This document shows positions 6,552-50,543 of a stretch of DNA of 64,000 bases, piece after piece. The notes beneath the pieces were generated by a model that made no database searches, was not told where the DNA came from, and saw nothing but the letters and a program-made list of their open reading frames with translations. Made by a program: the position numbers and the translations under genes. Origin of the DNA: a phage. Positions within the stretch are counted from its first letter, which is position 1. Every line of letters begins with the position of its first letter. The stretch lies in the sequence record PZ674595.1; one strand, given 5' to 3'.

Positions 6552-6824
6552 AAAGAATTATGGCGCTTGTTGAGGAAGTCACTCCTCTTACGCACTTTGT
6601 TTTGCCATGCCGGCAGTTAGCTTCTGCCTTTGACTATTCATGCGGCAACCCCGCATTTCGCCACAATGGGCAATTCACTTTTATGGAATAAACTGGCCGT
6701 TGTGTCGATTTAATTAGCATGGCCTTACCATGCTAATTTATTCAACTTGTACAATCCTACAAATCTATCCACTCAGGCTTACACCGTCTTCGTTATTGTA
6801 GAAATGAGGATCATCAGCGTTGAA

Positions 6825-7040
6825 TCAGCTTAGAGCAACGACATTTGCTGCTGCTGGGCCTTTAGCCCCATTCTCGATAGAGAATTCGACCTGCTGGCCT
6901 TCTTCCAAAGTGCGGAAATTATTACTCTGAATTGCCGAAAAATGTACAAAAACATCTTTACTGCCATCAGCAGGAGAAATAAAGCCAAAGCCTTTATCAG
7001 AGTTAAACCATTTTACTAAACCAGTCATTTTATTAGACAT
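6825..7040 (-). CDS. Cold-shock protein, CspA family (closest in my recollection to CspB/G/I)
   Basis: Translation [38 protein letters not shown]... with RNP motifs KGFGFI and VFVHF; ATG at 7040 is internal Met33 of the 103-aa track ORF, preceded by GAAGGT. Confidence 0.9.
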
Positions 7041-7369
7041 AGATATTACCTTCTTAATTTTGTGAGCCACATAGTGCGGCGAGAATTTGATCTGTATAGA
7101 TTGGGACTTACTTAGGCACTTAAGGAGGAGACTCACGAAGAAGGGAAATCAGAAGATAACACTGAACTGAGACTGCTTTACTAAAACTGCTTACATAAGG
7201 TCTGTCTTGCAAACCAACGATGCTATTAACGCATACCCCTTCTTTTCATGCAACCTTTATTTTTCAAAGATAACTAATTTTTGTCACCATTGGTTTAGTA
7301 AACGTTAACGAACCAGACGATGCCAGACACCTTTACAGAGAACAGATGCCCGCCAATTGGCGGGCATCA

Positions 7370-13567: not shown

Positions 13568-13616
13568 TCGCAATTATCTTATTAAGAAAACAATTTGTTT
13601 AAAAGGATAAGAAAAC

Positions 13617-22297: not shown

Positions 22298-22867
22298 ATG
22301 AGTAAAAAAATCAGCGTAGTTGGTGTTGATCCCTCAATGAGCAACTTTGGGCTTGCTGTGGGCACTTTAGACCTTGAGACGGACGAACTTGAGATTCACG
22401 GCCTTACTCTTGTTGAGACTAAAGCGGGGAGTAACAAAAAGACCGTTCGTGTGAACAGTGACGATCTGCGCCGCGCCAGTGAAATATGGCGTGTTGCGAA
22501 GCCAATCATTGATAAGGCAAATATGGTTTTTTGTGAGCTACCGGTTGGGAGCCAAAACTCTCGTTCGCAGACGTCTTACGGTATTTGTATCGGTGTACTT
22601 GCGTGTGTGGATAAGCCATTGATCCAGGTTACTCCAAACGAAATCAAGCATTTTGTCGGCAATAAACTTACTACATCGAAAGAAGAGATTATCCAGTGGG
22701 CTACGAAAAAACACCCTAAAGCACCGTGGCTGCGTCGTAAGCAATCTGGACAGGATGTTCTCGTGAACAAAAACGAACATTTGGCTGATGCGGTGGCTGC
22801 CATCCATACCGGTATGCAAACAGATCAGTTCCGCCAGGTGCGCGATGTTCTTAAGTCTCTCATTTGA
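22298..22867 (+). CDS. RuvC-like Holliday junction resolvase (putative)
   Basis: N-terminal VVGVDPSMSNFGLAV and C-terminal LADAVAAIHTG resemble RuvC catalytic motifs; RBS AAGGAG. Confidence 0.55.
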   Translation: MSKKISVVGVDPSMSNFGLAVGTLDLETDELEIHGLTLVETKAGSNKKTVRVNSDDLRRASEIWRVAKPIIDKANMVFCELPVGSQNSRSQTSYGICIGVLACVDKPLIQVTPNEIKHFVGNKLTTSKEEIIQWATKKHPKAPWLRRKQSGQDVLVNKNEHLADAVAAIHTGMQTDQFRQVRDVLKSLI

Positions 22868-22940
22868 TTTCATTGATAGGTAAGTGCTTATCTATTAACA
22901 TGGGCCACTATATTTAGTGGCCCTCTTTATTTGGTGATAC

Positions 22941-25256
22941 ATGATAAGCATCGTAAAACGTAACGGCCAAACAGAGCCGTTATCCGAAGAAAAATACAAC
23001 CGCGTCGTAATGTATGGCGTAGAAGGCATTCGTGGTGTAAGCGCATCCGCTGTAGCAATGGGAGCTGCGGCCAGCATTTTTGATGGGATTACCACCAGCC
23101 AGTTGCATGAGGCTTTGGTTAAATCTGCCGCTGATTTGATCTCACCAGAAGCACCAAATTACTCACAGGTGGCTGCCCGCCTGAACATTTTTAAAATCCG
23201 CAAAGATGCCTTCGGTCGTTACGACTATCCGAACTTCTACCAACACATTGTCAAGAACGTTAACAAGGGCGTTTATGACAAGGATTTGCTGACACATTAT
23301 TCGTTTGAAGAGATCGAAGAACTCGGCAATTACATTAAGCCGAAACGTGACGATCTTTTTGGCTATGCAGCTACGGTGCAGTTGCAAAGCAAATACCTCG
23401 TTCAAAACCGTGTTACTGGTGAGATTCATGAGGGGCCGCAACATATCTATATGCTGGTAGGCATGTGTCTGTTCCAGAATTGGGAAGACGACTGCGCTGG
23501 CAAAACACGTATGGAGATGGTCAAAGGTTTCTATGACGTTACAAGTACGTTCAAACTGTCTCTGCCCACACCAATCATGGCCGGCGTCCGTACTCCAACC
23601 CGTCAGTTCTCCAGTTGTGTGCTGATTGAGTCTGGCGATAGTCTGAAAGGGATTAGTGCAGCTTCAGCCGCAATTATCGACTACGTTTCACGTCGTGCTG
23701 GAATTGGTATTGGTTTTGGCCGTATCCGTGCGCTGGGCAGCGAGATCCGCAATGGTGAAGCCACCCATACTGGAGTTATTCCATTCCTGAAGCATTTCCA
23801 GACGGCTGTTAAATCTTGTTCGCAAGGTGGTGTTCGTGGTGGCGCAGCAACAGCGTTTTACCCGATCTGGCATCTTGAAGTTGAAAGTCTGCTGGTGGTG
23901 AAAAATAACCGTGGTATTGATGAAAACCGCGTTCGCCATCTTGATTACGGCGTCATGAGTAACCGTCTAATGTACCGTCGACTCGTCAGAAGCGAGAACA
24001 TCACTCTGTTCAGCCCGCATGATGTGCCTGATATGTACGAAGCCTTCTTCACAGACCAGGAGCTGTTTGAAAAGCTGTACCATAAATACGAAGCCGATGA
24101 TTCAATTCGCAAGAAGTCAGTACCTGCCATTGAGCTGTTCTCATCTCTGATGCAGGAACGAGCGTCCACGGGCCGAATTTATATTGCGAACGTCGATCAT
24201 ATTAACGAGCATGGCGCTTTCATTCCTGCTCTTGCACCTGTTCGCCAGTCAAACCTGTGCATGGAGATCACTCTACCCACTCGTCCACTGGCATTTACCG
24301 ACGACCCGAACGGTGAGATCGCGCTATGCACTTTATCCGCTTTTAACCTCGGAGCCATCCGTTCACTGGAGTCTCTTAAAGAGGTGGCGTTCTATGCCGT
24401 TGCTGCACTGGATTCGTTACTGGATTATCAAGACTATCCGATGGAGGCAGCCGAAGTGCCTGCCAAAGCTCGTCGTAGCTTGGGAATTGGTGTAACCAAC
24501 TTTGCTTATTACCTGGCAAAGAATGGCGTTCGTTATTCTGATACCGCTGGCAATAAACTGGTGCATGAAACGTTCGAAGCTATCCAGTATTACCTTCTTG
24601 ATGCCAGCTGCCGACTTGCTGAAGCAAAAGGTGAGTGTGACTGGTTTGAGCAGACCAAGTACGCAATTGGTCAGTTGCCGATCGACCATTACCGTTCTTC
24701 ATTAGACGAAAGTGGCGAAACCAACTTTGAGTTAAAGATGCCGTGGGAAGAACTGCGTGAACGTATTGCAAAATACGGCCTTCGCAACTCCACACTGACG
24801 GCACAAATGCCATGCGAGACTTCCAGCCAGATCACTAATTCCACCAACGGCATCGAACCGCCTCGTGGCCCGGTGTCGGTGAAATCTTCTAAGGACGGCA
24901 TCGTTAAGATGGTCGTGCCTGAGTTTGAAAAACTGAAGGAACAGTATGAATACCTGTGGGATATGCCGGACAACCGCGGCTATCTGACAAAGGTGGCGAT
25001 CATCCAGAAGTTCTTTGACCAGGCTATTTCAGCCAATACCAACTATGACCCTTCTCGCTTTGAAGGCGATAAAGTCCCAATGATGACGCTACTGTCAGAT
25101 TTGCTTCTCGCCTACAAGATGGGAGTTAAAACGCTTTACTACCACAACACCAGAGATGGGGCAGGAAAGCGTGATGACGACGAACCGCAGAATCCACTCA
25201 CGCAAGCTGTAGCCGTCGAGCCAGAAGATGAGTGCGACGGAGCCTGCAAAATCTGA
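22941..25256 (+). CDS. nrdA: ribonucleoside-diphosphate reductase class Ia alpha subunit
   Basis: 771 aa; long identical stretches to E. coli NrdA as recalled (YLVQNRVTGEI, PTPIMAGVRTPTRQFSSCVLIE, QGGVRGGAAT, PVRQSNLC). Confidence 0.95.
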   Translation: MISIVKRNGQTEPLSEEKYNRVVMYGVEGIRGVSASAVAMGAAASIFDGITTSQLHEALVKSAADLISPEAPNYSQVAARLNIFKIRKDAFGRYDYPNFYQHIVKNVNKGVYDKDLLTHYSFEEIEELGNYIKPKRDDLFGYAATVQLQSKYLVQNRVTGEIHEGPQHIYMLVGMCLFQNWEDDCAGKTRMEMVKGFYDVTSTFKLSLPTPIMAGVRTPTRQFSSCVLIESGDSLKGISAASAAIIDYVSRRAGIGIGFGRIRALGSEIRNGEATHTGVIPFLKHFQTAVKSCSQGGVRGGAATAFYPIWHLEVESLLVVKNNRGIDENRVRHLDYGVMSNRLMYRRLVRSENITLFSPHDVPDMYEAFFTDQELFEKLYHKYEADDSIRKKSVPAIELFSSLMQERASTGRIYIANVDHINEHGAFIPALAPVRQSNLCMEITLPTRPLAFTDDPNGEIALCTLSAFNLGAIRSLESLKEVAFYAVAALDSLLDYQDYPMEAAEVPAKARRSLGIGVTNFAYYLAKNGVRYSDTAGNKLVHETFEAIQYYLLDASCRLAEAKGECDWFEQTKYAIGQLPIDHYRSSLDESGETNFELKMPWEELRERIAKYGLRNSTLTAQMPCETSSQITNSTNGIEPPRGPVSVKSSKDGIVKMVVPEFEKLKEQYEYLWDMPDNRGYLTKVAIIQKFFDQAISANTNYDPSRFEGDKVPMMTLLSDLLLAYKMGVKTLYYHNTRDGAGKRDDDEPQNPLTQAVAVEPEDECDGACKI

Positions 25257-25362
25257 CATATGGTGGGGGATATCCCCACCTTCTCTTTGATTTGTAAACC
25301 TTGTTTAAACACATAAGATAACAACTTGTTTAAACGCACCAAAAAAGAAAAAGGAAAAACAC

Positions 25363-26505
25363 ATGTCATATTCAACGTTCCGTTTGGGTGCTAATGATGC
25401 AACCAAAGAGCCTATGTTCCTCGGACAATCTGTCAACGTGGCACGTTACGATCAGCAAAAATACCGTGATTTTGAAAAGTTGATTGAACGTCAATTGTCT
25501 TTCTTCTGGCGGCCGGAAGAAGTTGATATTTCGAGCGATCGTATCGACTTCAACACGAAGCTGCGGGACCACGAACGTCACATTTTTCTGAGCAATCTCC
25601 GTTATCAAACGTTACTCGATTCAGTTCAGGGACGTAGCCCAAATGCAACGCTGCTGCCGCTTATCTCTATTCCTGAACTGGAAACGTGGGTTGAAACATG
25701 GTCTTTCTCTGAGACTATCCATAGCCGCAGCTACACCCACATTATTCGTGGCATGGTGGACGATCCGAGCATTGTTTTTGACGGTATTGTTACGGATGAA
25801 GAAATCATCAACCGAGCGATCAGTATCTCTGCTGAATATGACAGGCTTTATGGGATGACCTGCGAGCGCCAGTCGTTAGGTGAGAAAGAGTTTGAACGTC
25901 TGTACGTAAATGAATATGGCTGGGAGCCATACCCTTTGCATCGTCAGCTTTTCCGCACGTTGGTGTCCATTAATGCGCTTGAGGCGATCCGTTTCTATGT
26001 AAGTTTTGCATGTACGTTTGCCTTTGGCGAACGGAAGTTGCTTGAGGGTAACACCAAAATTATGCGCTTTATTGCCCGTGATGAAGCTCTGCATTGCGAA
26101 GGAACTGAACGCATGATCCGCTTCATGCGTACCGGTCGCGAAGGTTTATTGTGGAAAGAGATTGCTGCTGATGAAGAAAACGTCATTTACGACACCATGA
26201 AATCAGTCGCCGAACAAGAAATGAACTGGGCAGACTATCTCTTCAAAGACGGTTCGATGATTGGTTTAAACGCGGATATTCTGAAGACCTATGTAAAATA
26301 CCGAACCAATCTGGCTATGAATCGTCTTGGCCTGAAGGCTTTATTTCCAGAAGTTACCACTGATCCGCTGGTCTGGATGAACAAGTGGTTGTTAACCGAC
26401 ACACTGCAAATTGCACCACAAGAGGCAGAGCAAAGCACATATCTGGTAGGTCAGATCGATTCTACCGTGGATAAGGCTTCTCTAAGCCAGTTTGCTGACC
26501 TGTAA
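25363..26505 (+). CDS. nrdB: ribonucleoside-diphosphate reductase class Ia beta subunit
   Basis: 380 aa; [32 protein letters not shown] and [13 protein letters not shown] as in E. coli NrdB; RBS AAAGGAAAAACAC. Confidence 0.95.
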
Positions 26506-35297: not shown

Positions 35298-35495
35298 ATG
35301 AACTGGTTTTCAAATCACTTTGGAAAAACTTGGCTGGCGATTCTGGCTTTCATAGCTCTCATGGCCGCCGGTTGGGTATCGAACATTGTAAAACTCGTTT
35401 GCTCTGGTGATCTCCAGTTTCAGGCTGGTATGACCTTGGCTCGTGTTGTTGGGATTTTTGTTTTTCCAGTCGGTTCGGTACTTGGTTATTTCTGA
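35298..35495 (+). CDS. small membrane protein
   Basis: 65-aa ORF with two hydrophobic segments; ATGA overlap with upstream frame. Confidence 0.35.
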   Translation: MNWFSNHFGKTWLAILAFIALMAAGWVSNIVKLVCSGDLQFQAGMTLARVVGIFVFPVGSVLGYF

Positions 35496-35588
35496 CGGTT
35501 GTTAGTGCATATGCATTGACCGTCTTTTCGTAAGCAATTCATGTAACTAGAAAACAACTTGTTTTAACAAATAACAAAAGGAAAGCAC

Positions 35589-36014
35589 ATGTTAGGTTTA
35601 TTCAAAAAGAAAACTCGTAAAGCTGTTATCGAGGTCAAAAAAATGGAGAACCGAGATGCGGTTGAAGCCACCGTGTGGGGCGCGTACATGATCTCCTATG
35701 CCGATGGCACATGCGACGCAAAGGAAATTTCCATTCTTGAGAAAACAATTGCAGCTCTGCCTGCGTTTTCTCCGTTTGCTGGTGAGATTGCCCAAATGAG
35801 CGCCAATATCCGTGCTCAATACGAAGCCTCACCGCGCCGCGCTAATGCCCAGGCTTTACGTGAGCTGGCTGATGTGGCCGGGACTAATGATGCAGTAGAT
35901 GTACTGTGTCTGTGCCTTGATATTGCCGACCAAGACGGTATTGGCGAACAAGAAGAGCTGGCACTGAAAAAGATCGCACAGGCGCTTCAGTTGTCACTGG
36001 ATGCTTATCTCTAA
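35589..36014 (+). CDS. TerB-like domain protein
   Basis: YADGTCDAKEISILEK and DIADQDGIGEQEELALKKIAQAL repeats typical of TerB; preceded by AAACAACTTGTTT motif. Confidence 0.45.
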   Translation: MLGLFKKKTRKAVIEVKKMENRDAVEATVWGAYMISYADGTCDAKEISILEKTIAALPAFSPFAGEIAQMSANIRAQYEASPRRANAQALRELADVAGTNDAVDVLCLCLDIADQDGIGEQEELALKKIAQALQLSLDAYL

Positions 36015-36172
36015 TGCTTGAGAGATTCCGGCTTGTGACCGTCATTGCTCTTCTGGTGATGGCGGTGTTGGTGGATTTTACGGGAAAGATGATGTCTGTC
36101 ATTTCTGATGGCGTCCTCATTGGTCTGGCGATCTACTTCGCTTATCCGCTAGTCCGTAAAGCAACGTGTTAA
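36014..36172 (+). CDS. small hydrophobic peptide (52 aa), below track cutoff
   Basis: ATG overlaps upstream stop (TAATG); followed by terminator. Confidence 0.3.
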   Translation: MLERFRLVTVIALLVMAVLVDFTGKMMSVISDGVLIGLAIYFAYPLVRKATC

Positions 36173-42868: not shown

Positions 42869-43120
42869 ATGAGCGACTGGAATATTGCAGCTAAAAGTCA
42901 GGAAGAACGGGATAAGGTTAACGTTGATCTGGCTGCCAGCGGTGTGGCGTACAAAGAGCGATTGAACATACCTGTCATAGCTGAACAGGTAGCCCGCGAG
43001 CAACCAGAGAACCTGCGCACCTATTTCATGGAACGGTTACGGCACTACCGGCAGTTAAGCCTCCAGTTGCCAAAAGGGAGCCATCCGGTGTATCAGAACG
43101 AGGATGCACCAAGAAAATAA
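42869..43120 (+). CDS. hot: DNA polymerase III theta-subunit homologue (HolE-like; P1 Hot-like)
   Basis: [43 protein letters not shown] closely parallels E. coli HolE as recalled. Confidence 0.75.
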
Positions 43121-43145
43121 CGGCAAGATGGGGAAGACATTAAAC

Positions 43146-43496
43146 ATGCTTAACTATCACGACAACACGCGTTCTATGCAGACAATCCGCACCAATACAG
43201 CGGTGGTCGATAGCTTTCCTGTACATACTCAAGGCCGTGAAGATACCGTGGAAGTGCGACGCATGTTGTGTCGCCGGTCACCAGGCCACCAGCACTTCAT
43301 CGTAACGTTTAAAAGCGATGTAGAGCGCGCCGAGAAAATCTCTAACTCCACATCTCTGGTTAGTCCGTTGGCGGAGGTTATTGTGCGCAACAATAAGGCG
43401 CGCTTTGTCCTTGAGGAGCATCATTCTGATTTTAATGAAAAAATTAAGTCAAGCATTTTGCAATATATGAATGGCAAGTTCACGCCACCAATGTGA
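43146..43496 (+). CDS. hypothetical protein between hot-like and humD-like (position of P1 lxr)
   Basis: Track ORF 43104-43496; internal ATG 43146 has the best RBS (GGGGAAG). Confidence 0.35.
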   Translation: MLNYHDNTRSMQTIRTNTAVVDSFPVHTQGREDTVEVRRMLCRRSPGHQHFIVTFKSDVERAEKISNSTSLVSPLAEVIVRNNKARFVLEEHHSDFNEKIKSSILQYMNGKFTPPM

Positions 43497-43557
43497 TTAG
43501 CCCCCAGCGTGGCGCGCCTGCAAACCCCGCTTTCACAAACTATGCCTTTTCAATGTA

Positions 43558-43577
43558 TACTGTATGAATAAACAGTA
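43558..43577 (+). promoter_or_regulatory. LexA (SOS) box upstream of umuD'-like gene
   Basis: TACTGTATGAATAAACAGTA fits CTGT-N8-ACAG consensus, 19 bp before the ATG. Confidence 0.8.
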
Positions 43578-43595
43578 TCATTGAGGTAAAACGCT

Positions 43596-43985
43596 ATGGG
43601 CTTCCCTTCTCCTGCGGCGGATTATGCAGAGAGCCGTATTTCTCTTGATCAGCAACTAATCAGACATCCTTCAGCGACCTACTTCATGCGGGCGGCAGAC
43701 AGCCATCACCGTGAGGGAATATTGCAAGGTGCTTTGCTGGTGGTTGATTCCTCACTTACCCCGGTTGATGGTTCTCTGCTTGTATGCGCTCTGGATGGGG
43801 AATATCGCGTAAAAAGATACCGGAAGTATCCACGTCAGCATCTGGAGGATTTAAGAACCGGTAAGAAGGAAGAATTGCCAAAGGATGACGATGGATGCAC
43901 GGGCAGCAATGCCGTGTTTGGTGTGATCACTCACATTATCAACGACGCAAGAAGTGGCGAGTTTGATGATTGTCCCGTGATGTAG
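43596..43985 (+). CDS. humD: UmuD'-like protein lacking the N-terminal cleavable tail (P1 HumD-like)
   Basis: MGFPSPAADYAESRISLDQQLIRHPSATYFMRA aligns with UmuD residues after the Cys-Gly cleavage site; S24 peptidase-like C-terminus; RBS GAGG. Confidence 0.8.
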   Translation: MGFPSPAADYAESRISLDQQLIRHPSATYFMRAADSHHREGILQGALLVVDSSLTPVDGSLLVCALDGEYRVKRYRKYPRQHLEDLRTGKKEELPKDDDGCTGSNAVFGVITHIINDARSGEFDDCPVM

Positions 43986-43995
43986 GAGAACTGAT

Positions 43996-44020
43996 TAGGC
44001 GGTGCAATGCACCGCCTTTT
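43996..44020. terminator. bidirectional terminator between humD-like (+) and mrp (-)
   Basis: AGGCGGTGC-AA-TGCACCGCCT followed by TTTTTAT; A/T-rich flank on the other side. Confidence 0.7.
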
Positions 44021-44022
44021 TA

Positions 44023-45123
44023 TCACACTGCGCGGAATGCGATTTCGCCAGGTATTACTTCACCTTGCCAATACATTTGGGCAGCAACGCGATCTGCGAG
44101 GTCACGATAAATAGCCGTAAATTCGCTATCTGGACGACTAATAACGGTTGGTGTTCCGTTATCCAGATCTTCACGAAGAGAGATATGAAGTGGCATTTGG
44201 CCTAACAACTGCGTGTTGTATTTCTCGGCCAGTTTCTGTGCGCCACCGGTGCCAAAAATTGGCTCGTGATGACCGCAGTTACTGCAAATATGCACACTCA
44301 TGTTTTCGACGATACCCAGTACCGGCACTTCGACTTTTTCGAACATCACAATGCCTTTCTTCGCATCGATCAGCGCGATGTCTTGCGGCGTAGTTACCAC
44401 AACCGCACCAGTTACAGGAATGTTCTGCGCCAGCGTCAACTGAATATCACCAGTGCCCGGCGGCATATCGAGAACGAGATAGTCCAGATCAGGCCATAGA
44501 GTTTCCTGCAACATCTGCATCAGCGCCTTGCTGGCCATCGGTCCACGCCACACCATTGCATTGTCGTCGGTGACCAGATAACCAATAGAGTTGGTTGCCA
44601 GGCCATGAGACATGATAGGTGCCATGTGAGTACCGTCAGGTGAGGTTGGACGTTGGTTTTCCGCGCCCAGCATGGTTGGAATTGATGGACCATAGATATC
44701 GGCATCCAAAATACCAACTTTCGCACCTTCAGCAGCCAACGCCAGTGCCAGGTTTACCGCCGTGGAGGATTTACCCACGCCGCCCTTGCCTGAGCTGACG
44801 GCGATAATGTTCTTAACGCCATTAATGCCTGGTTGGTTTTTGACGCGCTTAAGCGTGGCAATGTTGTACGACAGCTTCCAGTCAATAGCCTTTGCGCCAG
44901 TGATACGGAGCAGATCACCACTACATTGCTCTTTCAGGTCTTCAAAAGGCTTATTCCACACGAAAGGCATGATTAGTTCGACATGCAGTGTGTCATCCAT
45001 CAACGCAACATGGTGTAACGCTTTAAGCGTAGTCAGGTTGTGTTTCAGGGTTGGGTGCTGAAAATTAGCCAGCGTACCGGCTACCATTGCTCTCAGGGCA
45101 TCCGGCGATTTGGACTCGCTCAT
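44023..45123 (-). CDS. mrp: iron-sulfur cluster carrier ATPase Mrp/ApbC
   Basis: 366 aa; IIAVSSGKGGVGKSSTAVNLALALAAEGAKVGILDADIYGPSIP and C-terminal ICSNCGHHEPIFG...GEIAFRAV essentially as in E. coli Mrp as recalled. Confidence 0.95.
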   Translation of the reverse strand: MSESKSPDALRAMVAGTLANFQHPTLKHNLTTLKALHHVALMDDTLHVELIMPFVWNKPFEDLKEQCSGDLLRITGAKAIDWKLSYNIATLKRVKNQPGINGVKNIIAVSSGKGGVGKSSTAVNLALALAAEGAKVGILDADIYGPSIPTMLGAENQRPTSPDGTHMAPIMSHGLATNSIGYLVTDDNAMVWRGPMASKALMQMLQETLWPDLDYLVLDMPPGTGDIQLTLAQNIPVTGAVVVTTPQDIALIDAKKGIVMFEKVEVPVLGIVENMSVHICSNCGHHEPIFGTGGAQKLAEKYNTQLLGQMPLHISLREDLDNGTPTVISRPDSEFTAIYRDLADRVAAQMYWQGEVIPGEIAFRAV

Positions 45124-45280
45124 CCCGTCTCCTTTATTTTAATTTGCGCAATTGTCGCCTTGTAGTGTACTCCAGCTACGACATTTAATCATTTATGAGA
45201 AATGCTGTTATCACATGGCAGACATAAGGCCATTTTGTTACTATCAAGCCCCTTTTCACTACAAAGAAGTAATGCCTACT

Positions 45281-47314
45281 ATGACCCAAGTCGCGAAGAA
45301 AATTCTGGTGACGTGCGCGCTGCCGTACGCTAACGGCTCAATCCACCTCGGCCATATGCTGGAGCACATCCAGGCTGATGTCTGGGTTCGTTACCAGCGA
45401 ATGCGCGGCCACGAGGTTAATTTCATCTGTGCCGACGATGCCCACGGTACGCCGATCATGCTGAAAGCACAGCAGCTTGGTATCACACCGGAGCAGATGA
45501 TTGGCGAAATGAGTCAGGAACACCAGACTGATTTCGCAGGCTTTAACATCAGCTATGACAACTATCACTCGACGCACAGCGAAGAGAACCGTCAGTTGTC
45601 TGAGCTTATCTATACTCGCCTGAAAGAGAACGGTTTTATTAAAAACCGCACTATCTCTCAGTTGTACGACCCGGAAAAAGGCATGTTCCTGCCGGATCGT
45701 TTTGTAAAAGGCACCTGCCCGAAATGTAAAGCGCCAGATCAATACGGCGATAACTGTGAAGTCTGCGGCGCAACATATAGCCCGACTGAATTGATCGAGC
45801 CGAAATCGGTGGTTTCTGGCGCTACCCCGGTAATGCGTGATTCCGAACACTTCTTCTTTGATCTGCCTTCTTTCAGCGAAATGTTGCAGGCATGGACCCG
45901 CAGCGGCGCGTTGCAGGAGCAGGTGGCGAACAAAATGCAGGAATGGTTTGAATCCGGCCTGCAACAGTGGGATATCTCCCGAGATGCGCCTTACTTCGGT
46001 TTTGAAATTCCGAACGCGCCGGGCAAATATTTCTACGTCTGGCTGGACGCGCCGATTGGCTACATGGGTTCCTTCAAGAATCTGTGCGACAAGCGCGGCG
46101 ATACCACCAGCTTCGATGAATACTGGAAGAAAGACTCCACCGCCGAGCTGTACCACTTCATCGGTAAAGATATTGTTTACTTCCACAGCCTGTTCTGGCC
46201 TGCCATGCTGGAAGGCAGCAACTTCCGCAAGCCGACCAACCTGTTTGTTCACGGCTATGTGACGGTGAACGGCGCGAAGATGTCCAAGTCTCGCGGCACC
46301 TTTGTTAAAGCCAGCACCTGGCTGAATCATTTTGACGCCGACAGCCTGCGTTACTACTACACTGCGAAACTCTCTTCGCGCATTGATGATATCGATCTCA
46401 ACCTGGAGGATTTCGTTCAGCGCGTGAATGCCGATATCGTGAACAAAGTGGTTAACCTGGCCTCCCGTAATGCAGGCTTTATCAACAAGCGTTTTGACGG
46501 CGTGCTGGCAAGCGAACTGGCTGACCCGCAACTGTACAAAACCTTTACTGATGCCGCTGAAGTGATTGGCGAAGCATGGGAAAGCCGCGAATTTGGTAAA
46601 GCTATCCGTGAAATCATGGCATTGGCTGACCTGGCTAACCGCTATGTCGATGAACAGGCTCCGTGGGTGGTGGCGAAGCAGGAAGGACGCGATGCCGATC
46701 TGCAGGCGATTTGCTCTATGGGCATTAACCTGTTCCGCGTGCTGATGACGTACCTGAAGCCGGTACTGCCGAAACTGACTGAACGTGCAGAAGCATTCCT
46801 GAATACAGAACTGACCTGGGATGGTATCCAGCAACCGCTGCTGGGCCATAAAGTAAATCCGTTCAAGGCACTGTATAACCGCATCGATATGAAGCAGGTT
46901 GAAGCACTGGTGGAAGCATCCAAAGAAGAAGTGAAAGCCACAGCCGCACCGGTAACTGGCCCACTGGCTGACGACCCGATTCAGGAAACTATCACCTTTG
47001 ACGACTTCGCCAAAGTTGACCTGCGCGTGGCGCTGATTGAAAACGCAGAGTTTGTAGAAGGTTCTGACAAACTGCTTCACCTGACGCTGGATCTCGGTGG
47101 TGAAAAGCGTAATGTCTTCTCAGGCATCCGTTCCGCTTATCCAGATCCACAGGCACTGATTGGTCGTCACACCATTATGGTGGCTAACCTGGCACCACGT
47201 AAAATGCGCTTCGGTATCTCTGAAGGCATGGTGATGGCTGCTGGCCCCGGCGGGAAAGATATCTTCCTGTTAAGCCCGGATGCTGGTGCTAAACCTGGCC
47301 ACCAGGTTAAGTAA
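45281..47314 (+). CDS. metG: methionyl-tRNA synthetase
   Basis: 677-aa product from ATG 45281 ([29 protein letters not shown]...KMSKS...); near-identical to E. coli MetG as recalled; track ORF begins upstream at 45152. Confidence 0.97.
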
Positions 47315-47335
47315 TTAAACAACCTCTCTTCGCAA

Positions 47336-47361
47336 TGCCCGGCAACACGCCGGGCATTTTC
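47336..47361 (+). terminator. Rho-independent terminator after metG
   Basis: GCCCGGC-AACAC-GCCGGGC followed by ATTTT. Confidence 0.75.
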
Positions 47362-47475
47362 ATATAGACACAATCCCTTCTGATTTACACAGTACCTAAA
47401 ACAATTTGTTTTCTGCCTTTTGTTGATGGAGATAATAAACCACATAAGAAAACAACTTGTTTTGGAGTGGTTGAA

Positions 47476-47775
47476 ATGTTGAACATTACCCAAGCCTACC
47501 AGGTGGCATTGATCAGCTCATCTCATACATCAGAGGAAGATGCTCGCCGATTCATGATCGCAAGCAATGAGCTGGATTGGGTTTCACAAATTGAGTACGG
47601 TTGCATTGTCCACGCAGGGTTACAGGACGATGACTGGAAAGATGAGTTGCGTCGATATGGTATATCCGAGGGCGCGATTGCGAACATTCAGAAAGTACTT
47701 GATGTAGGCTTTGACTCTGTACATTTTGATTGTGGTGCACCGGTCGTTGAAGGGCTAGAGTGCTGGCAATGGTAA
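47476..47775 (+). CDS. hypothetical protein
   Basis: ATG 47476 behind GGAG; two AAACAAnnTGTTT motifs upstream (47398-47411, 47448-47463). Confidence 0.4.
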   Translation: MLNITQAYQVALISSSHTSEEDARRFMIASNELDWVSQIEYGCIVHAGLQDDDWKDELRRYGISEGAIANIQKVLDVGFDSVHFDCGAPVVEGLECWQW

Positions 47776-47811
47776 TCCGGCAATCGCTTCATACTAGACA
47801 ACGGAGAATTT

Positions 47812-47997
47812 ATGCTTAAAGAAGACTCATATCTACTAAAGGCGCTTGAAATGCGTGGCGTTGAACCTACAGTGAAAAACGCTCACGATATCTACCTTCA
47901 GTTTTCACCGGAGCTGAAACGGTTCATAAATCAATACGGGGTTAATGACTCAAGTGTTAAAGCAATGATAGATGATGAATTAGACCATCTCATCTAA
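47812..47997 (+). CDS. small hypothetical protein
   Basis: 61-aa ORF; RBS AACGGAGAA. Confidence 0.3.
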   Translation: MLKEDSYLLKALEMRGVEPTVKNAHDIYLQFSPELKRFINQYGVNDSSVKAMIDDELDHLI

Positions 47998-48149
47998 TCG
48001 TTTCCTATGATAATGGTTTTCACTTTGAGATTGTTATTTTTCATAGCTAAAGCTGATGTTTGTGGAAGGTGGATTGATAAACGGATGCGTATTTAGGTTA
48101 TACAAGTGAGAAAATTGATAATATATAAACGCGATTTTTATGTGATGGA

Positions 48150-48719
48150 ATGGATGTGATGGAAACCCAGAACCAACAAACAAAACCTCTGAATAACATT
48201 TATGCGTGGATTCTAGCGTTCATGCCTTTCTTCTTTGGAGTATCGCCGGAAGAGTATACCAATTACGCTATTATAATTGGGGGTGTAACTACCATCGGTT
48301 TGTTAGTAGCTGACAGAATGGCTCTATCGGAGTCTGGCTGTGAACCACCTTCAATTCTATGGGGGGTATTCCTCCTGCCTGTCTATCTCTGGAAGCGCGC
48401 GACTATTACAAAAGGCAGCAGAGTGCCATTTATCATAATCGTTGCGTCGCTGGCTTGGATTATCTTCATCGGCATCCCACACAAGGACGAGGTTGCTCTT
48501 GAAGAAGCAGCCTGCCCTCTCGTGACAACTATTCTGAAAGAGAATAACGGTTCGACTGCACCAAAATGTATGAAGGTGACAATAGAGGACAAGGTGACGG
48601 ATAAGTTCTATAGAGCAACGGCTACACTAGACAATGGTAATGACATTAACATTACTCTGGAACTTACCGGCGACAGGAACTTCTACGTCCGTGTTCCAAA
48701 TGTTTATCTGAACAACTAA
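48150..48719 (+). CDS. membrane protein (AT-rich gene)
   Basis: Three predicted N-terminal TM segments; low G+C. Confidence 0.4.
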   Translation: MDVMETQNQQTKPLNNIYAWILAFMPFFFGVSPEEYTNYAIIIGGVTTIGLLVADRMALSESGCEPPSILWGVFLLPVYLWKRATITKGSRVPFIIIVASLAWIIFIGIPHKDEVALEEAACPLVTTILKENNGSTAPKCMKVTIEDKVTDKFYRATATLDNGNDINITLELTGDRNFYVRVPNVYLNN

Positions 48720-48839
48720 CGGTTGCAACTTATTGATAATGGCGGTCACAATTTGATTCTTTTCTATAAGAACCCGTTGATCGCCACTACTCCCCTCCCA
48801 TACCAGCAATCACATCATTAAATATCAATAGGTTATGGT

Positions 48840-49700
48840 TGTTTATACAAATAAGAAAACAACTAAATAACAGATCAACGAAACGTCAACGCTTTCACCC
48901 GATTTGGTCTAAAAAATTGACGTTTTCACACATCACTTCTTATACCCGTAACTCTACGCAGCAGACAGCGCCACAGCGTCCAATTTTCACCACAGACGAC
49001 CCAACACACTACCAACAAAAACACACGCTCAAAATCGCTCCCGTTGCGTTACACAACCATATAAACAACTTATTTTCAGGCATAACAAAACAACTAAATA
49101 ACACACATGCCATTTCCAAAAACAACCAACCTCTTTATGGCAGGCTACCGAAAAGACCCACCTCTTCTCCCCAGTCTACCGAAAAGACCCACCTCTTCTC
49201 CCCAGGCTACCGGACAACCAACCTAACTTTCACAGGCAATCCGAAAACATTCATACGCGCGATACCCACGACACGCCATTCCCCAAACAGCGAAGAAACA
49301 CCAGAATCACTGAAACCCCAACGAAGCCTGTAACCGCAAGGATTCTCTCAATCCCAAAAGACACGAAACAGAACAATCACGGGAAACGCCATTACCCAAT
49401 ACACGAATAACTACAAAAGCCTTTCACACACTCCAGACAAACAACTCAAACACAACAACGAAAGGAATCGCCCACCTGCCATTACTCCATACACGGAGAA
49501 GAACAATCACCAAAACGACGAGAACACCCCATAGAAGAACCACCGCAAAACGAACGAAACCACATACACCGACAGAGAAAACAACACACCCAATTCACCA
49601 ACAGAAATAGTCGCCGTATAGAACATTCTGGAAGGAGTGAGCATTAACGCCTATAGAGAGGTTGAGACAGATAAAACACAACATGTATAGCGAAGAAGCC
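48840..49700. repeat. strand-asymmetric C/A-rich, G-poor tract with tandem 29-bp repeats
   Basis: Plus strand almost devoid of G over ~860 bp; perfect tandem copies of CTACCGAAAAGACCCACCTCTTCTCCCCA at 49155-49183 and 49186-49214 plus a degenerate third; track ORF 48839-49333 judged a composition artefact. Confidence 0.6.
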
Positions 49701-49810
49701 AGGTATGTATAAGTGGGGAGAGAAGGAGGGGTGTCGCCTCCTTTTTCGTATTTATTCAACTCCTGATTTTACCCCCCCGTAACACCCCTACGGTCAGCCT
49801 TCGGTCCATA

Positions 49811-49945
49811 CAGGGAAAAGGCTGCATCCCGCTACAGAAACGGCTGGGTTGCCTTCGGGGAACGGCTGGAGGTTTTCAGGGAAACGGTCGAGTTGCCTGT
49901 GTGGATTTCGGGAAAAGGCTCGATGCCGGTTCAGGAACGGTGGCG
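49811..49945. repeat. array of six ~14-bp direct repeats, consensus CRGGGAAAMGGCYG, spaced 21-24 bp
   Basis: Copies starting near 49811, 49835, 49856, 49877, 49909, 49932. Confidence 0.6.
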
Positions 49946-50324
49946 TACCGGTATAGCGTGAGGGAGAGTTGCGGCTGTCCACCTGTAATGTGCGGGAAGA
50001 AGAGAGGCGCTCACGTGCAGGCGAACTTACTTACCGCTGGATTCCCTCTGAATGCCCAGCTACAGCGTAATTGTGCCAGACAGTCAGCGGGTCACAATCG
50101 ATTTCAGTAGGTTTTCGGGGAGAGGATTATTCTGCCCACCAGCCCCGCGGCGCGCGTAGAGCAGAATATCGTAAATACTGGCTCTCGTGTCGTTCCCGGA
50201 TATTCACTGCCAAGCCTGGCTTTCCCGACATAAAATCCTTTTTCGCCTTTGTCTTATTTCGATAATAACACCAACAAGTAAACAACATATTTAGACGTTA
50301 TAGAAACGAAGTGAGGATGAAGAG

Positions 50325-50543
50325 ATGATTAAGATGCCTGTGACGGTTGAGGTGTGGGGCGTGGATTCCCTGGCTGAGTGTCTGGATGCAGTGGGGCCGG
50401 AGTTGTACCGCAAGTTGTGGTCGTTCGTCCCGGCAGAAGGGGAATCGCCCAAAGGGAAGGATATCTGGCACCTGCTGAGTGAAGATGAAAAGCGGGAGCT
50501 GGTGGGCGCGGTACACAGCGAGTTCCCGGGCGACGAAGATTAA
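50325..50543 (+). CDS. hypothetical small protein
   Basis: 72-aa acidic ORF; RBS GAGGATGAAGAG; terminator follows. Confidence 0.4.
   Translation: MIKMPVTVEVWGVDSLAECLDAVGPELYRKLWSFVPAEGESPKGKDIWHLLSEDEKRELVGAVHSEFPGDED

Follow-up and report, generated by a model that had tools for sequence, protein, structure and literature searches.

We analysed a 64,000-nt stretch of phage DNA (sequence record PZ674595.1; hereafter, the window) in which two genes of chromosomal type, apbC (also called mrp) and metG, stand back to back among phage and plasmid genes. We propose that this pair, at positions 44023-47314, is a moron-like accessory cassette that was captured long ago from an enterobacterial chromosome, has long resided in a single lineage of SSU5/pHCM2-type phage-plasmids from Escherichia and Shigella, and has metG expressed in the lysogen; we put the probability of this reading at about three in four. 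The cassette would comprise apbC and metG, read outwards from promoters in the region between them and bracketed by hairpins. It is flanked by a humD gene with a LexA box on one side and by two copies of an element-wide palindrome on the other.

The apbC-metG pair and its carrier

An earlier note, made from the letters of this DNA, had described a divergent mrp/metG pair. The open reading frames (ORFs) at 44023-45123 (minus strand, 366 aa) and 45281-47314 (plus strand, 677 aa) both scored above the curated cut-offs of the corresponding families, and the description stands. The first encodes ApbC, an iron-sulphur (Fe-S) cluster carrier of the P-loop nucleoside triphosphatase type. Its translation scored 759.3 bits against the NF008669 equivalog model (cut-off 348), holds the P-loop GKGGVGKS and a CxxC motif (CSNC), and is 3 aa shorter at the N-terminus than all chromosomal copies examined. 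The second encodes a full-length methionyl-tRNA synthetase (MetRS), which scored 1018.8 bits against the NF001100 equivalog model (curated cut-off 587) over residues 4-677 and matched the domains PF09334, PF19303 and PF01588. We took as the metG start the ATG used by PGAP; the 720-aa ORF of the mechanical list begins at a TTG upstream of this ATG. The class I motifs are present, as a HIGH-type sequence (HLGH) at residue 22 and KMSKS at residue 333, as are zinc-knuckle cysteines at 146, 149, 159 and 162 and a C-terminal tRNA_bind domain at 581-674. From these features, the MetG copy looks fully functional. Between the genes lies a divergent-promoter intergenic region of 157 nt (45124-45280). 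The order and orientation of the pair are those of E. coli K-12 (b2113-b2114), where mrp and metG are adjacent and divergent, in line with the earlier note. The segment has a guanine-plus-cytosine (G+C) content of 0.511, compared with 0.468 and 0.453 in its 4-kb flanks and 0.459 in the window. The rise in G+C claimed from inspection is real but modest.

A 5.5-kb query covering 43000-48500 was 100% identical to pH261-1, a circular E. coli plasmid of 110,879 bp, and our gene map of the element assumes that this match holds throughout the window. pH261-1 carries plasmid genes (repA and ParB-family genes), phage structural genes (tail genes, including those for a tail fibre and TipJ), a DNA-metabolism set (dnaE, nrdAB, thyA, dfrA51, recA, rnhA, a ligase and helicases), and also four tRNAs, grxA and cspG; related records that bear the cassette have been deposited as phages. 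Judged by gene content, the element is an SSU5/pHCM2-type phage-plasmid of ~110 kb. A P1-type (Punavirus) identity was considered and rejected: P1-group records cover only 8-12% of the 5.5-kb query, in hot/humD and at 88-91% identity, the P1 neighbours of humD are absent, and the gene content is SSU5-like. That the segment lies inside the element, first argued from motifs common to both sides, was borne out by the occurrence of the palindrome AAACAAnnTGTTT to the left of the cassette (exact sites at 13588, 35552 and 36281) as well as to its right, by the match to a circular plasmid, and by the same element neighbours in >200 plasmids.

More than 200 complete plasmids, from E. coli, Shigella sonnei and E. 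albertii, share the same humD-apbC-metG-DUF5983 junctions, as do four genome records of phages: Cyrano, PhiR41_1 and two of CMS-2020a. This recurrent position between the same element genes supports the earlier proposal that the mobile element took up an mrp-metG fragment from a chromosome. It also bears on the alternative raised alongside that proposal, that chromosomal and element reads were joined during assembly. Only the step in G+C speaks for such a chimera, whereas the junctions agree base for base among phage records and independent complete plasmids that span several species and continents, and the cassette sequence differs from every chromosome. An assembly artefact is thereby refuted. 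A MetG at least 95% identical (aa) is encoded in ~205 plasmid records. In 5426 complete E. coli genomes, we found 221 plasmid-borne metG places and 5428 chromosomal places, which indicates that hosts, in essentially all complete E. coli genomes, retain their own chromosomal metG. We also searched all plasmids with the two flanks concatenated and found no place with ≥80% coverage that lacked the cassette, so that an insertion scar or target site could not be defined. Salmonella phage S.Kent 1-2-1 (84% match) was rejected as an independent capture: the record, an unverified 5-kb contig of low coverage whose metG is Salmonella-like, is probably host DNA. Separately, CP170191.1, labelled Enterobacter hormaechei B56, has an mrp-metG locus 100% identical to that of E. 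coli K-12 in both genes, and is probably mislabelled or an E. coli genome.

Discordant ancestry of apbC and metG

Homology to K-12 spans only 44027-47315, ending at the two stop codons; at 88.4% nt identity, it takes in both coding sequences and a portion of the region between them. The element has no chromosomal flank on either the yehE or the DUF4132/yehF side. By this alignment, nothing of the captured DNA extends beyond the coding sequences and the intergenic region; these coding sequences and their shared promoter region would be all that was retained from the capture. The ~3.4-kb chromosomal fragment of the earlier note is accurate for the coding sequences and the region between them, and not for the flanking hairpins, which are not those of E. 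coli. The first of these hairpins, G+C-rich and with 9 bp, is at 43997-44017 within the 37-bp spacer between humD and apbC (-18.6 kcal/mol, z -5.7), and is unlike the region 3' of mrp in every sampled chromosome. We read it as the humD terminator because its U-run is on the plus strand; in the direction of apbC the hairpin has no U-run. In PhiR41_1, it has undergone a compensatory double substitution (GGCGGTG/CACCGCC to GGTGGTG/CACCACC), which argues that the structure itself is selected. The second hairpin is terminator-like and follows metG on the plus strand at 47334-47358, with a 10-bp stem and then UUUCAUAU (-19.1 kcal/mol, z -5.6). It is kept in all phage-plasmid copies and differs from the terminators of E. 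coli, Citrobacter, Salmonella and Kluyvera; a consensus terminator scan did not call it, and an Rfam search gave no match within or next to the cassette.

The description of the intergenic region and terminators as native-looking held in part. The metG-proximal 47 of the 157 nt (45234-45280) align to E. coli at 89%; the remainder does not, aligning weakly to Citrobacter (77%), and neither hairpin resembles that of E. coli. An ancestry change-point thus lies in the intergenic region, near 45234. On its two sides the genes differ in their distance from chromosomes. apbC is ~82% identical (nt) to both E. coli and Citrobacter, with ApbC 94% identical (aa) to K-12, and its synonymous divergence (dS) from the chromosomes examined is 1.4-2.8 throughout and about 1.5 from Escherichia, as large as that between genera or larger. 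metG is 94.05% identical (nt) to K-12 and 93% to a second Escherichia species, with MetG 98.5% identical (aa) to K-12, and its dS to Escherichia is 0.29-0.35, a within-genus distance. The ratio of dS in metG to dS in apbC is 0.19-0.21 between phage-plasmid and Escherichia, compared with 0.48-0.80 in all 21 chromosome-chromosome pairs. Composition differs as well. G+C at third codon positions (GC3) is 0.611 in metG, essentially chromosomal, and 0.526 in apbC versus 0.619 in K-12 mrp, so that the codon usage of apbC, contrary to the earlier description, is not E. coli-like; it looks to have drifted towards the composition of the element.

The genes are therefore "host-type" in being a chromosomal-type mrp-metG pair, and are not a recent copy, with apbC 82% and metG 94% identical to E. 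coli. We considered whether the mrp-metG locus of the present E. coli host was recently captured, through a specialised-transduction-like or recombination event. The K-12 gene order and orientation and the 98.5% identity of MetG fit such an event. However, the overall nt identity of 88.4%, and 82% in apbC, contrast with 96.6-100% among E. coli chromosomes; chromosomal flanks are missing and the terminators differ; and the cassette is common to phage-plasmids whose backbone genes are 2-7% apart. The divergence and the flanks thus exclude a recent capture. Rather, the capture would have occurred long ago from an enterobacterial chromosome, and the donor would not have been the present E. coli host. 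A donor search of species-representative genomes, in a chromosome sample without E. albertii, E. fergusonii and E. marmotae, found none among the matches listed, the best chromosomal matches being E. coli (88.4%) and Citrobacter (85%). Most simply read, the pair was captured long ago from an enterobacterial lineage not represented in the sample, and metG was then homogenised with Escherichia chromosomal alleles.

Polymorphism among seven phage-plasmid copies, on which this and the following selection figures are based, is patchy in pattern, with 172 polymorphic sites in metG and 54 in apbC, and metG is mosaic. The metG allele of the S. sonnei and CMS-2020a records has a run of sites matching K-12 that includes a 344-nt exact match at 45707-46050; in a maximum chi-square breakpoint test of this allele, 0 of 2000 permutations reached the observed value. 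In the window allele, no tract identical to E. coli exceeds 143 nt, which is close to the background of 83-125 nt between Escherichia species, and at 45664-46020 this allele is less distant from the second Escherichia species than from E. coli. E. coli chromosomal alleles are ≤3.4% apart, and all phage-plasmid alleles are 5-6.6% from E. coli alleles. Together, the discordant gene ages and the conversion tracts suggest that recombination between phage-plasmid and chromosomal copies is ongoing. We tentatively entertain a more specific account, whose chance we judge to fall a little short of even: the cassette may be an evolutionary chimera kept by traffic between replicons. The ancient capture from an unsampled enterobacterial lineage would survive in both hairpins, in apbC and in the left-hand part of the intergenic region, whereas metG would have been overwritten repeatedly by gene conversion from Escherichia and Shigella host chromosomes. 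On this account, the phage-plasmid would shuttle and store essential-gene alleles, and the invariant ApbC would have been selected as a partner in its own right instead of hitchhiking.

Expression, selection and role

Within the conserved part of the intergenic region, TGnTACTAT (45236-45244, TGTTACTAT) and the leader from there to the start codon are common to K-12 and the phage-plasmids, and 45236-45244 is probably a conserved extended -10 sigma-70 promoter of metG. The promoter region of the cassette is without AAACAAnnTGTTT, the palindrome that precedes neighbouring element genes; hence, metG should be expressed while the element resides as a plasmid. In this plasmid (lysogenic) state, metG would be read from its own promoter, like a host gene, and the cell would gain a second, slightly different MetRS whose dose follows the copy number of the phage-plasmid. 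We infer the use of this promoter, expression in the lysogen, and an effect of the window allele equal to that published for metG on phage-plasmids.

Morons are independent promoter-gene-terminator units of temperate phages. The cassette resembles them in that it would be self-contained, with a predicted promoter region of its own, a hairpin at either end, higher G+C and a place between element genes. Of these features, the hairpins, the step in G+C and the position are observed, and the promoter is predicted. Unlike a typical moron, the cassette consists of two divergent genes, one of which encodes an essential housekeeping enzyme. Some observations weigh against a moron-like unit expressing metG in the lysogen. 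A consensus promoter scan of the intergenic region gave no site scoring ≥9/12, and because of this lack of a strong site, the metG promoter is called from the TGnTACTAT sequence that the cassette and K-12 have in common. The published persistence alleles lower MetRS function, whereas the phage-plasmid copy looks fully functional. Lastly, a model built on metG alone does not account for the strict conservation of ApbC.

Both genes are intact in all seven copies. In apbC, none of the 54 polymorphisms is nonsynonymous, although pairs of copies differ by up to 35 synonymous changes, and the ApbC protein is identical in all seven; the polymorphism is mostly central, where Escherichia ApbC proteins are identical too. 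The ratio of nonsynonymous to synonymous divergence (dN/dS) in metG is 0.01-0.05 among phage-plasmids, equal to that in chromosomal comparisons, and the intergenic region is 98.7-100% identical across the copies. These patterns indicate that both genes are under strong purifying selection. Private MetG changes at positions invariant in 27 enterobacterial MetGs were I342V and R600H in the window allele, G134C in the S. sonnei/CMS-2020a allele, and P168S in PhiR41_1. An apparent metG pseudogene in CP058309 was set aside, as the ORFs of neighbouring genes are broken too and an indel-rich assembly is likely. The same data bear on the idea that the cassette is neutral passenger DNA with no selected function. 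Since the host copy is kept, the cassette is dispensable, as this idea would have it; however, the excess of synonymous change (0 versus 54 in apbC; the low dN/dS in metG) and the intactness of all seven copies, with the fragmented CP058309 looking like an assembly fault, leave it with little credibility.

A different possibility is that the cassette mainly serves the element: MetRS, through initiator and elongator Met-tRNA, and the Fe-S carrier would support the element's own large set of replication and nucleotide-metabolism genes, with dnaE, nrdAB, thyA and primase/helicase, or would aid translation in the lytic cycle. Many host-type housekeeping genes are present in the element (dnaE, nrdAB, thyA, dfrA51, recA, rnhA, grxA, cspG and the four tRNAs), unrelated phages encode MetRS homologues, and the invariance of ApbC in seven phage-plasmids suggests selection beyond metG. 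Against this, the cassette has a host-type promoter region without the palindrome of the element genes, and the phenotype in the literature, as summarised in one citing paper (PMC12452169), is at the level of the host only. We regard a mainly element-serving role as unlikely, though deserving of attention. The MetRS homologues of unrelated phages (Pseudomonas phage Y5, Acinetobacter phage MD-2021a and Microcystis phage MaAM05) provide a comparison. As in large lytic phages with aminoacyl-tRNA synthetases, the MetRS here is virus-borne; unlike theirs, which are 24-66% identical and not host-like, it is a near-host allele accompanied by its chromosomal neighbour and promoter.

Neighbouring features, known systems and significance

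To the left of the cassette is humD (43596-43985, plus strand), a UmuD'-like gene that scored 220 bits against NF051876 (cut-off 120). A LexA box, TACTGTATGAATAAACAGTA, lies at 43558-43577 (plus strand), 19 nt 5' of the humD start, and overlaps a predicted humD promoter at 43532-43561; the homologous site in P1 carries a LexA-site annotation. The LexA-box-controlled, humD-like gene described earlier to the left of apbC is thus present as described. P1-type homology stops at the humD stop codon, with matches to P1, RCS47 and SJ46 ending at 43975-43984. In P1, the slot directly 3' of humD is filled by the phd-doc cassette, and here the same slot is filled by apbC-metG. The two elements are alike in that a foreign cassette begins directly after the humD stop codon; they differ in cargo, and only the hot-humD module is common to both, at ~88%.

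To the right is a DUF5983 gene (47476-47775, plus strand; PF19419, 49 bits), which accompanies the cassette in all related phage-plasmids examined. Two copies of the palindrome separate it from metG, in agreement with the two motif copies reported there before, and AAACAAnnTGTTT is exact in both (47399 and 47450): AAACAATTTGTTT at 47399-47411 is conserved in other phage-plasmids, and AAACAACTTGTTT at 47450-47462 is 14 nt 5' of the DUF5983 gene start. The window has 9 distinct exact AAACAAnnTGTTT sites compared with 0.06 expected. Sites in the window include 13588, 25319, 35552, 36281, 47399, 47450, 50280, 50657, 51142, 52045, 52795, 53280, 63291 and 63316; three more lie outside it, in the examined part of the pH261-1 record (16682-45000). 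Allowing ≤1 mismatch, the palindrome is 12-36 nt 5' of a start codon at ~12 of 16 intergenic sites, and hexamers resembling GATAAT/TATTAT occur ~12-15 nt 5' of it at most sites. From its position, AAACAAnnTGTTT resembles an operator situated in the leaders of numerous genes of the element.

Several other features of the element were observed. At 6800-7218 (minus strand), 5' of cspG, the Rfam cspA thermoregulator is matched over its full length (185.7 bits); by this match, cspG is another host-type gene carried with its regulatory leader. At 48930-49600, ~670 nt without an ORF, inside an unannotated gap (48720-50327), have an extreme strand bias (A 39%, C 34%, G 12% and T 14% on the plus strand), include a 31-nt tandem repeat at 49141-49212, and are conserved at 92-95% in five other phage-plasmids. 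As RNA, this region would be C-rich and G-poor, which would be ideal for Rho loading; alternatively, it may hold a non-coding RNA or an origin. The toxin AtaT acetylates Met-tRNAfMet. An AtaR/AtaT-like (KacAT-like) GNAT toxin-antitoxin pair (PDB 6GTS/6AJM, E 1e-79) is located outside the window, at 35336-36134 of pH261-1. An obligate pairing of AtaT with MetRS was rejected, as the toxin is present in only ~40% of cassette-bearing plasmids (246 records, 352 places). Also outside the window, ISEcp1-blaCTX-M-64 adjoins the tRNA cluster at 22764-25560 of pH261-1; thus, the metG-bearing element also carries an extended-spectrum beta-lactamase.

The closest known systems are the chromosomal locus and the phage-plasmids of S. 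sonnei. The cassette and the K-12 mrp-metG locus (b2113-b2114) share their genes, divergent order, and the metG-proximal promoter and leader, and differ in terminators and in the intergenic region, which is 131 nt in K-12 versus 157 nt in the window and mostly unalignable. pWPMR2, which belongs to the SSU5 supergroup and is found in E. coli as well (bioRxiv 10.1101/2025.09.12.675607), and its relatives are SSU5-type phage-plasmids of ~108-111 kb with the same cargo in the same place, as compared through S. sonnei CP045933. This record has humD-apbC-metG-DUF5983 with the same junctions, and its apbC and metG are 98.7% and 96.8% identical to those of the window; its MetG differs from that of the window at 10 residues. 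The element of the window, of pH261-1 type, represents another variant, and pWPMR2-like elements are reported without resistance genes, unlike pH261-1 with its ISEcp1-blaCTX-M-64.

Multidrug-resistant S. sonnei has been associated with extra, highly variable metG copies on a phage-plasmid, and expression of the phage-plasmid metG has been reported to give an antibiotic-surviving subpopulation predisposed to cephalosporin resistance (both as summarised in PMC12452169, citing Tam et al., medRxiv 10.1101/2024.10.27.24316207). In several species, high-persister mutants have repeatedly turned out to be metG mutants, and less Met-tRNA synthesis or homocysteine proofreading leads to more persistence (PMC11004401). 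The benefit that the earlier note had thought possible thus has a reported phenotype behind it, in the summary given by PMC12452169. Since metG on pWPMR2 and relatives has been published, the cassette itself is not a new finding, and phage-plasmid-borne metG is already known as a driver of antimicrobial survival. Relative to the account in the citing paper, our comparisons add the discordant ancestry of apbC and metG and evidence for gene conversion of metG; the residual interest, in the evolutionary mosaic and in selection on apbC, is modest. Ongoing recombination, if true, would explain why metG in these elements has been described as highly variable. For annotation, metG and apbC on a 110-kb "plasmid" contig represent neither contamination nor a chimera. 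The 221 plasmid places in 5426 genomes imply that ~4% of complete E. coli genomes carry a plasmid-borne copy. That an essential translation enzyme has a mobile second copy matters clinically, as the literature, in the summary cited above, ties phage-plasmid metG to antibiotic survival and to successful S. sonnei lineages.

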